This document shows, piece by piece, positions 1 through 63,807 of a stretch of DNA of 64,000 nucleotides (its first letter is position 1; every line of letters begins with the position of its first letter). The stretch lies in the IMG/VR virus record IMGVR_UViG_3300046816_000434, one strand, 5' to 3'. Position numbers and translations under genes: made by a program. The stretch is from a virus. Below the pieces are notes generated by a model. The model worked only from the letters and a program-made list of their open reading frames with translations, ran no database searches and was not told where the DNA came from.

Positions 1-422
1 CACTGCTTCTGCTGCCCGATGCCCAGCCCAGCCATAGGCACCTCCACCGCGAACCCCCGGCACTTGAGCGCCGGAACCAGAAACTCGCGGTAGTCGCCCC
101 CGGCCAGGACGACCAGCCGTGCGCTTTCGGGAGCACAGTCGCGCAGGCAGCTTGCGGTGATGCGGCTCCAGGTCTGCCGCCGCACCCGGTCGTCCGGGTC
201 GGTCGGGTCGTCCTTCCTCCAGGTGAAGTCGTACGGCTCCACGATGCGGTCGGGGCGCATGATGCCATGCAGTGCGCTCAGGATGAACCAAGGGCGTCCG
301 GTGGCCTCGACGTAGGCTCTGGCCTTACTGAACCAGTCGGAGACGTACAGCATCCTGGCTGGCTGCGCTGTGGTCGCCTTCCCGGCGACGCAGGACACGA
401 GGAATACGCGGTTGTCTGCCAT
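1..422 (-). CDS. DUF6884-family protein, 3' end truncated by window edge
   Basis: Manual translation from ATG at 422: MADNRVFLVSCVAGKATTAQPARMLYVSDWFSKARAYVEATGRPWFILSALHGIMRPDRIVEPYD...LAGGDYREFL...VEVPMAGLGIGQQKQ. It matches the LVSCxxxK...LYxSxWFxKAR...WFILSAxHG...EPYD pattern. Absent from the ORF track. Confidence 0.75.
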   Translation of the reverse strand, partial: MADNRVFLVSCVAGKATTAQPARMLYVSDWFSKARAYVEATGRPWFILSALHGIMRPDRIVEPYDFTWRKDDPTDPDDRVRRQTWSRITASCLRDCAPESARLVVLAGGDYREFLVPALKCRGFAVEVPMAGLGIGQQKQ

Positions 423-674: not shown

Positions 675-736
675 GGTCTCCTCAGTGCCAGATTGACTGG
701 CAGACGGCGGTGCCTCCCGGCGTGGCCGTTTCGACC
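675..736 (-). ncRNA. Type II hammerhead ribozyme HH1
   Basis: Minus strand: GGUC-GAAA-CGGC..GCC-GGGA-GGC..GCCG-UC^UGCCAG-UCAAU-CUGGCA-CUGAGGA-GACC-AUG. Complete core (CUGANGA, GAAA, GUC cleavage triplet) and all three stems pair. Predicted cut between 703 and 702. Confidence 0.9.
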
Positions 737-739
737 TTG

Positions 740-949
740 TCAGGCAGCAGGCAGGTTTGCCGCCCAGTCAATCAGGCACAGCACAACCTTCAGCGCAACG
801 GCGATGAATGCCAGCCCAAAGCAAACGCCAACCGCGCCACAGATCCATTGCAGGATCAGCACCGCCAGAGGGCTAAAGCAGCATGCGACCAGCAGGAGGT
901 GGAAGGCGATAATTCCGGCCCATTCCAGGCGGTTCAGCTTATCGGGCAT
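740..949 (-). CDS. Small membrane protein, two predicted TM segments
   Basis: MPDKLNRLEWAGIIAFHLLLVACC...; hydrophobic and overlapping the upstream stop. Confidence 0.6.
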   Translation of the reverse strand: MPDKLNRLEWAGIIAFHLLLVACCFSPLAVLILQWICGAVGVCFGLAFIAVALKVVLCLIDWAANLPAA

Positions 950-1388
950 GGAACGCCTCCCGGATTGTGTGATTGATGTAGCCGTAGTTCCTGCGCTGGT
1001 CGTCCTGGTCCTGATACCCCTTACCCTGACATTGATGACAGACCCCGCCAAACTGCGGAGGCGCACCGTTGATGCAAGGCCCCCAGCGATACTCGCCAGA
1101 GCACTGGCAGTGGTCGCAGGCGCGGTACTGCAGGTCTGCAACCTCCCGCTTGTCATCGTCGCGCCCTACCGTCCTGACGGGCCAGCCGTTGCCCTGGAGC
1201 CGTGTCGCCGCAAGCTGCCGCGCTACCGCCTGGGCCTCAGCCAGCGTGCAGTGCAGGTACAACCTCCCGTCCGTGGTGAAGCCGTCCAGCACGCGGCGGT
1301 CTACCGTGCGCCAGACCTTGTGGGCGTTCGGGACGTGGACCGTCCAGCGCTGCATGTAGTCGTTCGTCTGTTCGTTCGTGTCGTTCAT
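939..1388 (-). CDS. Phage protein with C-terminal DnaJ-like CxxCxxxG zinc finger
   Basis: CDHCQCSG...CHQCQGKG motifs; ATG at 1388 after a purine-rich GAGAGA. Confidence 0.7.
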   Translation of the reverse strand: MNDTNEQTNDYMQRWTVHVPNAHKVWRTVDRRVLDGFTTDGRLYLHCTLAEAQAVARQLAATRLQGNGWPVRTVGRDDDKREVADLQYRACDHCQCSGEYRWGPCINGAPPQFGGVCHQCQGKGYQDQDDQRRNYGYINHTIREAFHAR

Positions 1389-1402
1389 GTTCAATCTCTC
1401 TA

Positions 1403-1461
1403 TGGCCTAGCTCATCAGCGTCACGCGGCCAGTCGTGACAGACGCCTTACGGCGTTTCGCT
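1403..1461 (-). ncRNA. Type II hammerhead ribozyme HH2 with pseudoknot
   Basis: Minus strand: AGC-GAAA-CGCC-GUAA-GGCG-UC^UGUCACG-ACUGGCCG-CGUGACG-CUGAUGA-GCU-A-GGCCA. Canonical CUGAUGA core; loop I UGGCC pairs with the 3' GGCCA. Predicted cut between 1441 and 1440. Confidence 0.92.
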
Positions 1462-2418
1462 TATCTGCACCAGTTGAGCCTGGATGAAAGCGCCGAACGG
1501 CTGCACGCTGTCGCCACGCTGGTAGGCTTCCTGGTAGTCGACAATCTCCTGCGGGGTGTCCGCCGTGATGCGGTCGACCTCGGCCTGCGCCAGGAGTCCG
1601 CCGTCCAGGATGAACTGGGTCATGGAGCCGGGGCGCTTCTTGCTGTCGCGGCCCCACAGTCCCTTCATCGCGGCAGTTTTGAACCGTGGCCGCGCTCGGG
1701 CCTCCAGGCGGACGATGCCGCGCAGTTGATCCGGTGCCAGTGCGGCGACTTCCTCCGGTTGCATGGCCGCGCAGAAGTAACACGAGGACTTGGGCGGAAC
1801 AGGCAGGCCAGCCAAGGCGATCTCCAGCTTGCAGCGGTCCCGGTTCCAGCCCCAGTCCTGCAGGGGATACCAGTACTCGTAATGCTCTTCCTCCACCTCG
1901 GCATTGCAGGCGTAGGTGCGAACCCGCTTCTGATCGGCGGAACTGTCGTCGTACCCGATGACCTTCAGCACCTTCTCTCCAGTCGCCCACCATTCCTTGG
2001 CTGGTGCCCACGCCTGGATGAACCGATGCTGGGGAGCGGCCTTCCATTTCTGGGAGCAGGACTTGAACTGGAAGCTAAAGCTGATCGACGGCAGCGTGCC
2101 GTTGGTCAGGCAGTTCTGCTCCAGGCTGTAGTACGGAGGCCAGTTCTTGAAGTTCTGGGGCACGTAGCGAACGACAGTGACCTCGGGCATGCCGTGGGCT
2201 ACCAGGAAGGCATTGATCGTCTCCAGGTAGGCGTAGGTTTCAGGGCGCTCCCCGCCAACGTCCGCGAACAGGATCAGATCCGGGACGATGCGGCGACGGG
2301 CAAACTCCACCAGCACTGCGGTAGAGTCAACGCCCATCCCGTAGGCGACGACCAGCGGCTGTCGCCGGGTGTAGGAACCGAACAGGTCCTCAGTGGTGAC
2401 GGTCTTCAGGGTACGCAT
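1447..2418 (-). CDS. Phosphoadenosine phosphosulfate reductase-like (PP-loop, adenine nucleotide alpha hydrolase) protein
   Basis: PP-loop variant AYGMGVDST, FADVGGERPETY, KSC, YPLQDWGW and PKSSCYFC Fe-S-type cysteines. Confidence 0.85.
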   Translation of the reverse strand: MRTLKTVTTEDLFGSYTRRQPLVVAYGMGVDSTAVLVEFARRRIVPDLILFADVGGERPETYAYLETINAFLVAHGMPEVTVVRYVPQNFKNWPPYYSLEQNCLTNGTLPSISFSFQFKSCSQKWKAAPQHRFIQAWAPAKEWWATGEKVLKVIGYDDSSADQKRVRTYACNAEVEEEHYEYWYPLQDWGWNRDRCKLEIALAGLPVPPKSSCYFCAAMQPEEVAALAPDQLRGIVRLEARARPRFKTAAMKGLWGRDSKKRPGSMTQFILDGGLLAQAEVDRITADTPQEIVDYQEAYQRGDSVQPFGAFIQAQLVQISETP

Positions 2419-63536: not shown

Positions 63537-63755
63537 TTACTTGGTTTCGGTGATGGTGAAGGTGTGCGGGTCGGTGTCGCCATCGGCCTGCTCCCAGACG
63601 TGAAGCTGGATGCTCTCGGTTGCTCTGTTGTATTCAAACACCCCGGCCTGCTGTCCATTCAGGAGCAGCAGAAAGCCGGGATAGTCCGGGTCGTAATGCT
63701 GCATCACGGTCAGTTTGCCGATGGGCGTAGTCACGTTCAGTTCGCTGTTGCTCAT
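63537..63755 (-). CDS. Hypothetical protein
   Basis: ATG preceded by GAGGAG inside hammerhead HH3. Confidence 0.7.
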   Translation of the reverse strand: MSNSELNVTTPIGKLTVMQHYDPDYPGFLLLLNGQQAGVFEYNRATESIQLHVWEQADGDTDPHTFTITETK

Positions 63756-63807
63756 GGTCTCCTCAGTGCCGGAATTCACCGGACAGACGCCTCGCGGCGT
63801 TTCGACC
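63756..63807 (-). ncRNA. Type II hammerhead ribozyme HH3
   Basis: Minus strand: GGUC-GAAA-CGCC-GCGA-GGCG-UC^UG(U)CCGG-UGAAUU-CCGGCA-CUGAGGA-GACC-AUG. Predicted cut between 63786 and 63785. Confidence 0.88.

Follow-up and report, generated by a model that had tools for sequence, protein, structure and literature searches.

The last codons of a phage gene and a hammerhead ribozyme share the same nucleotides in the DNA described here. In the window, the term used throughout this paper for the whole 64-kb stretch of viral DNA that was analysed, the gene of a PAPS-reductase-like protein (1447..2418, minus strand) ends inside HH2 (1403..1461, minus strand), which, judged from its sequence, is a complete type II hammerhead and probably an active self-cleaving ribozyme, with a predicted cleavage site. 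Set against about 200 phage hammerheads, the overlap looks like an infrequent side effect of close packing rather than a dedicated control device, and on present evidence it is ordinary compaction. The best explanation, to which a probability of about 0.7 is assigned, is that a type II hammerhead cuts the operon RNA, that it belongs to a module whose register is shifted by one base relative to the upstream gene, and that the overlap is a tolerated by-product of packing or recombination.

HH2, including its 3' pseudoknot tail, was recognized by the Rfam family Hammerhead_II (RF02276) and by a structural scanner, which demands GAAA, an A-U-closed stem III, a U-H site, stem I, CUGANGA and stem II, and which detects type II hammerheads only. 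All of its parts lie on the minus strand and follow one another in the order II-GAAA-III-GUC-I-CUGAUGA-II, forming a three-way junction in which stems I and III are closed by loops and stem II is open to the flanks. The sequence gives stem II as AGC (1461-1459) paired with GCU (1411-1409). Next to its 5' strand is the GAAA catalytic core (1455..1458; G12, A13, A14 and A15.1), seen in the sequence and in the Rfam match, and then the stem III hairpin A-CGCC GUAA GGCG-U (1442..1455), in which CGCC (1454-1451) pairs with GGCG (1446-1443) around the GUAA loop (1450-1447). Based on the Rfam alignment and the scanner, cleavage is predicted after C1441, the last base of the GUC triplet (1443-1441), and before U1440. 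Stem I is a 7-bp hairpin (1419..1440) with an 8-nt loop I, ACUGGCCG; its strands are UGUCACG (1440-1434) and CGUGACG (1425-1419), with a U-G pair at the base. The stem I and stem III hairpins were called by both Rfam and the scanner, and both are recovered in the minimum-energy fold. The second part of the catalytic core, CUGAUGA (1412..1418), is evident in the sequence and in the Rfam match, and the tail AGGCCA (1408-1403) follows stem II. The lengths of stems I, II and III given by the scanner are 7, 3 and 5 bp, and the invariant core is complete, with CUGANGA, GAAA and the NUH triplet (as GUC) all found in the sequence.

The full Hammerhead_II model matched 1462..1401 with 36.4 bits, 0.6 bit below the gathering score of 37, corresponding to E = 1e-3 for the whole window and all 4227 families, or 1.4e-5 locally; at gathering thresholds, Rfam gave no match anywhere in the 64-kb window. 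HH2 does not fold with a better energy than shuffled sequence does (z = -0.29), and it was reported that some hammerhead motifs may lack function (Perreault et al., 2011; PMC3088659). The score just under the threshold, the fold energy and this report would all fit an inactive relic or a chance look-alike, at which the RNA stays uncut. However, energy z-scores are not expected to single out short ribozymes, and a relic is contradicted by the intact invariant core and GUC site, by the modal lengths of all three stems and by a 5-bp pseudoknot whose register is correct. The scanner matched the window three times, always on the minus strand (63807-63756, 1461-1409 and 736-675), versus a chance expectation of 0.075 matches per window in Markov-randomised sequence of the same composition; with two sibling copies in the same operon, a relic or look-alike is extremely improbable. 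Among other RNA-like signals, a CRISPR-DR33 match at 1435-1471 (20.3 bits, gathering score 39) mirrors only the stem III hairpin and was rejected as being at chance level, as was a twister-P5-like match at 63667-63721 (16.2 bits). A terminator-like site on the plus strand (1432-1453) was also rejected: it is the mirror image of stems III and I, and is no terminator of the sense transcript.

The pseudoknot between loop I and the 3' tail is a hallmark of type II hammerheads, and deletion, mutation and rescue experiments revealed that fast cleavage needs it (PMC3088659). A preliminary description of this DNA had proposed a 5-bp pseudoknot of UGGCC with GGCCA past stem II, and this pairing is present in HH2 and in the register of the family. 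Its 5' strand UGGCC, in loop I (1427..1431, minus strand), is complementary to 1407-1403, and its 3' strand GGCCA (1403..1407, minus strand) begins one base past stem II (tail offset 1). In a first sample of 123 phage hammerheads, 31% had at least five contiguous pairs joining loop I to the tail within its first 10 bases, versus 11% with the tails permuted, and the pseudoknot helices had 31 different sequences, nearly all of them from tail offset 0 or 1. In a later sample, 49 of the 207 hammerheads carried the pseudoknot, and the dimensions of HH2 are modal among these bearers (stem II of 3 bp in 37/49, with 5 bp for stem III and 6-7 bp for stem I). Relatives built exactly like HH2 (7/3 bp stems and an 8-nt loop I), which were picked without regard to pairing, covary in the HH2 register, with UGACC/GGUCA, UAACC/GGUUA, UCACC/GGUGA, CGAGC/GCUCG and UGAUU/AGAUCA. 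Since the register is shared and covaries in phage relatives, the pseudoknot of HH2 is the pseudoknot of the family.

The upstream gene, taken from the ORF list, encodes 323 aa, and its product is a member of the PP-loop family (PHROG 424, E = 1.9e-18; the match to PF01507 is weak) with 1491 detectable homologues. The C-terminus of the protein reads ...Q-L-V-Q-I-S-E-T-P-stop, and its last codons are AGC (1461-1459), GAA (1458-1456), ACG (1455-1453), CCG (1452-1450) and UAA (1449-1447). The preliminary description had stated that HH2 overlaps these codons (AGC GAA ACG CCG UAA, 1461-1447, minus strand), that the stop lies within the stem III tetraloop and that the overlapping bases build stem II, the GAAA core and the GUAA loop, and the coordinates bear out all three statements. 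The last 15 nt of the ORF are inside HH2 and its last four sense codons double as ribozyme: the GAAA core (1455..1458) is made of parts of the codons GAA and ACG, and the UAA stop (1447..1449, minus strand) occupies positions 2-4 in the GUAA tetraloop. Cleavage at the predicted site, after C1441, would leave 6 nt (GGCGUC) past this stop on the upstream fragment.

A UAA triplet is also found at the usual stop position of the family, -5 from the GAAA core (1461..1463, minus strand; identified from the sequence and the family peak), and it lies one base out of frame, in A-UAA-GC-GAAAC, where the gene reads CAG AUA AGC. Because of this shift, the gene continues for another 14 nt before its frame meets a stop. 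Within HH2 the frame of the gene holds a single stop, the loop III UAA, and is otherwise open well into the next gene; therefore the loop has to satisfy two demands, that of a GNRA loop and that of a stop, and the overlap as a whole is a double constraint on about 15 nt. The AUA codon that forms the -5 UAA is the sole ATA among the 13 Ile codons of the gene, 11 of which are ATC, and ATA accounts for 8.5% of the Ile codons in the long ORFs of the window. The out-of-frame -5 UAA could be a coincidence, expected by chance in roughly 5-10% of cases.

HH2 is the second of three hammerhead copies in the window, each of which lies on the minus (sense) strand between a stop codon and the next start codon. 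The gene downstream of HH2 (939..1388, minus strand; ORF list) encodes 149 aa without a family match, and no relatives of this protein were found in viral contigs; its AUG (1388) is 58 nt past the upstream stop and is preceded by GAGAG, which resembles a ribosome-binding site. HH1 (675..736, minus strand; Rfam 20.6 bits and scanner) is a type II hammerhead with a CUGAGGA core, and the final base of the upstream stop codon is 3 nt ahead of its first base. HH3 (63756..63807, minus strand; Rfam 16.1 bits and scanner), also of type II, has a stem III as in HH2 with a GCGA loop, and the upstream UAG ends 3 nt ahead of the ribozyme. Both HH1 and HH3 lack the pseudoknot tail. In each of these two siblings, the CUGAGGA core and the GAC that follows it create a GAGGAG run resembling a Shine-Dalgarno sequence, and the next AUG comes directly after stem II (GGUC/GACC as called by the scanner). 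Between the 149-aa gene and HH1 there is a 69-aa ORF (740-949, minus strand) with two hydrophobic stretches (MPDKLNRLEWAGIIAF...) and no family match. This ORF begins 8 nt ahead of the point where the 149-aa gene has its stop codon, overlapping the end of that gene, and its stop codon comes to an end 3 nt short of HH1 (736 in the scanner call). The operon continues downstream with the gene of a DUF6884 protein (PF21818, E = 6.5e-38) at 3-422 (minus strand), which runs off the start of the window.

Loci homologous to the PAPS-reductase-like gene were scanned for ribozymes and for the ends of their genes. They comprised 19 viral, 80 metagenomic and 13 genome-contig loci (39-74% identity) and one GenBank phage, 113 loci and 531 kb altogether. 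The structural scanner found a type II hammerhead in 0/113 of these loci, and no Rfam ribozyme of any family reached the gathering score in the 20 closest of the scanned relatives. Among GenBank phages, relatives do not exceed 47% identity, and no hammerhead is present in Pseudomonas phage PARCL1pr. The conserved sequence of the homologues stops at QL(I/V)QI, and the SETP of the window belongs to the variable part. Past this motif, the closest homologues have unrelated tails of 3-9 residues (TEKTI, QEIIK, QRAKP, ATE, QGGIQ, QKTP and QSATV), and the nearest homologue protein, P0001 with 93% identity, ends in TEKTI-stop. The homologues thus end at different stops and without overlap, in 113 loci without a type II hammerhead, and this is the outcome that the preliminary description itself had named as counting against a regulatory meaning of the overlap. 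At one locus with 74% identity (L023:947-1045), the tail is longer (KETGVPNMNGAGHAAFTAAR, then a stop) and contains a GCGGCC-UUCAC-GGCCGC hairpin; there are frame breaks upstream, and the locus has no hammerhead.

Another relative, L020 (72% identity), bears on the history of the stop codon. Its gene ends ...QIQSATV-stop and is directly followed by the next ribosome-binding site, with a downstream gene that differs from the one in the window; it has ATC where the window has AUA, and its similarity to the window ends there. It could be imagined that the stop is ancestral and that the hammerhead was grafted onto an existing 3' end by microhomology (AAGCG...GUAAG), which would make the loop III UAA the original stop of the gene instead of a fallback. 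In this case the ribozyme-less tail of L020 (1320-1340), AGC GCG ACC GTG TAA, would correspond to AGC GAA ACG CCG TAA in the window; a pairwise alignment with 1447-1463 of the window matches 12/17 bases and puts the two stops in the same column, and some homologues have similar final residues (QKTP-stop, SATV-stop). The match was, however, not reproduced in a three-sequence alignment, the tails past QL(I/V)QI are highly variable, and the rough chance probability of the match is only about 0.01-0.05, before gap placement. Grafting onto an ancestral stop is considered unlikely. As to the likeness of the two tails itself, it may be junction microhomology, or chance.

To place HH2 among other phage hammerheads, the position of the upstream stop codon was recorded in type II hammerheads from pattern scans of IMG/VR, in which stem III was fixed as CGCC...GGCG and the GUAA/GUGA loop was either fixed or free, so that the sample is biased to the CGCC/GGCG stem III used in the search patterns. 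After removal of duplicates, the census contained 207 hammerheads from about 200 phage loci (L100-L357), and 159 of them had an upstream ORF of at least 70 aa on the same strand. The upstream stop is no more than 10 nt before the ribozyme in 60/159 and overlaps the 5' strand of stem II in 47/159, typically as UAG or UAA whose final base or bases start stem II; taken together, 107/159 stops are within 10 nt of stem II or overlap it. The stop is more than 10 nt upstream in 19/159, and apparent read-through, probably due to a wrong frame or an embedded motif, is seen in 26/159. In 2/159 the stop is the UGA of the CUGAUGA core, and in 5/159 it is in or overlapping loop III. A stop triplet at -7..-5 from the G of GAAA is present in 123/207 hammerheads, versus about 10/207 at control positions. 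The usual arrangement is a stop fused to stem II. Of the hammerheads with such a triplet, 97 have a long upstream ORF, and in 28 of these the triplet is not the stop of that ORF. The Rfam consensus has a conserved A at position 1, which may simply represent the middle base of the -7..-5 stop codons.

The five loop III cases are HH2, two at locus L179, and one each at L239 and L258. The first ORF at L179 ends ...LETP-stop in a UGAGUAUC loop and the second ends ...RNPC-stop at the edge of loop and stem, whereas the ORFs at L239 and L258 both end ...VETP-stop, in a GUAA loop and a GUGA loop, respectively. At L258 there is in addition an out-of-frame UGA at -7, the same pattern as in HH2. The genes concerned are unrelated, and they fit into tidy same-strand arrays. 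Among the 51 hammerheads that have both an upstream ORF and a GUAA or GUGA loop III, the loop's own stop is used in 3. The loop III stop is a minority variant (about 3%) with an 'ETP-stop' signature imposed by GAAAC-GCC, and the arrangement seen in HH2 is uncommon but recurrent. A deeper overlap was noticed in an element present at L272 (1172-1663, plus strand) and L288 (minus strand), in which a 164-aa ORF (...CETPANCPQWDGCWPGVAAWS, then a stop) reads through a type II hammerhead as a whole and has its stop at the UGA within the CUGAUGA core, with about 20 codons that are also ribozyme.

The footprint of the bacterial ribosome extends from about -15 to +15, counted from the P site, and the ribosome unwinds mRNA at about 11 nt past that site. 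With the UAA (1449-1447) in the A site, a ribosome would accordingly cover about 1467-1438, a span that would reach from the 5' strand of stem II through GAAA and the whole of stem III, past the scissile bond and into the first part of stem I, and folding of HH2 would be incompatible with the presence of this terminating ribosome. Since the last 15 nt of the ORF are ribozyme, termination would require stem II, the GAAA core and stem III to be unfolded. A ribosome at the -5 stop would likewise hold stem II and GAAA together with the initial bases of stem III. Because the footprint at the -5 stop also hits the ribozyme, the conflict between ribosome and ribozyme would be a property of most of the class and not specific to HH2.

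The preliminary description had gone on from the overlap to a control of cleavage by translation; the overlap does exist physically, but neither the homologues (0/113) nor the census (5/159) support a dedicated regulatory role. Such a role would make HH2 a selected device, in which ribosome traffic over the last codons keeps the ribozyme unfolded, and in which the cutting of the operon RNA, and hence the stability and translation of the downstream message, tracks the translation of the upstream gene. The geometry of the terminating ribosome, which follows from the coordinates and the known footprint, is real and counts in favour of this idea; the downstream ribosome-binding site and start codon are within about 20 nt of the pseudoknot tail, and the loop III stop recurs independently in L179 (twice), L239 and L258. 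Yet these stops are rare and scattered over unrelated genes, and the overlap is wholly absent from the scanned homologues of the PAPS-reductase-like gene. Even with the canonical stop at -5/-6, a terminating ribosome would lie over the ribozyme, so that a deeper stop brings no specific gain, and the out-of-frame canonical stop in both HH2 and L258 points to accident. Nor does the upstream coding sequence have above-chance anti-ribozyme pairing: the pairing of this sequence with the 5' half of HH2, seen in a 211-nt fold, was rejected as being at chance level because its duplex energy was equalled by 20% of codon-shuffled controls and by 16.5% of other window segments. Both that ribosome traffic was selected to hold HH2 unfolded and that downstream expression follows upstream translation in this way appear quite improbable.

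It is very doubtful, too, that the stop in stem III acts as a two-way coupling point, at which ribosomes delay cutting and the cut in turn shuts the enzyme off and frees the downstream gene. If it did, cutting would wait for gaps in translation, and slight 3' trimming of what remains past the stop, 6 nt and one half of a hairpin, would produce a non-stop message and call for ribosome rescue. Speculatively, and for HH2 in particular, having just 6 nt past the stop within a terminal hairpin could ease the conversion to a non-stop message.

The preferred reading, that of a packing by-product at a probable cleavage site, can be put as a sequence of steps. Phage type II hammerheads would be compact junction modules that consist of a stop codon, a ribozyme, a ribosome-binding site and a start codon, and the module's own stop triplet would normally be fused to stem II. 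At HH2, the module may have joined the upstream gene one base out of register; the gene would then skip the -5 UAA of the module, read 14 nt of it as S-E-T-P and terminate at the UAA of the GUAA tetraloop. After transcription, HH2 would cut the polycistronic RNA past C1441. The PAPS-reductase-like message would be left with an end in the stem III hairpin bearing a 2',3'-cyclic phosphate, and the message of the next gene would receive a 5'-OH start and the stem I hairpin. Finishing ribosomes would transiently unfold HH2, as they probably do for most members of the class.

The census gives the positions of upstream stops at phage hammerheads, about two thirds of them no more than 10 nt from stem II or overlapping it, and a few percent inside the ribozyme. 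Since stops cluster at and inside these hammerheads, models of their action at the cell level must allow for ribosomes that terminate on the ribozyme. HH2 and the hammerheads at L179, L239 and L258, whose stops are naturally set 14 nt deeper, are suited to tests of interference between translation and self-cleavage.

Type II hammerheads, their pseudoknot and their clustering in phages are already published, and HH2 adds one clean case. It agrees with the known members (RF02276; PMC3088659) in its permuted topology, open stem II, CUGAUGA and GAAA core and GUC site, and also in its 3-bp stem II, a pseudoknot 0-1 nt past stem II and the phage context (PMC3088659). No structural difference from the published type II hammerheads was seen; what differs is that the upstream gene runs 15 nt into the HH2 motif. 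The words 'overlap' and 'stop codon' are absent from the text of PMC3088659, and the searched parts of PMC3088659, PMC8782182 and PMC6765202 contain no mention of stop-codon placement. Hammerhead clusters were reported to flank single genes in prophage and phage operons, as in the triple arrangement at ardA of Agrobacterium tumefaciens, and it was proposed that they cut long phage transcripts into gene-length messages (PMC3088659, Figure 3 for the ardA arrangement). The window resembles these clusters in having three same-strand ribozymes at the gene junctions of one operon; the published clusters cleave in vitro and in E. coli (PMC3088659), whereas the cleavage of HH2, which comes from an uncultured phage, is predicted. 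Three type II hammerheads cleave in vivo in Desulfovibrio vulgaris (PMC8782182), and a review in 2019 still regarded the role of bacterial and phage hammerheads as open, with processing of polycistronic RNA only suggested (PMC6765202).

HH2 is like the majority of phage hammerheads, those with a fused stop, in the tight packing of stop, ribozyme and start and in the overlap of the terminating ribosome with the ribozyme. Engineered ribozyme insulators of the RiboJ type provide a further parallel, in that a self-cleaving ribozyme parts expression units on one transcript, as HH2 would; unlike HH2, they are synthetic, derive from other hammerhead types and do not overlap a coding sequence. Within its own class, HH2 is set apart by the depth of its stop, which usually lies at -5/-6, 0-2 nt into stem II, and here lies 14 nt deeper, in the loop of stem III.
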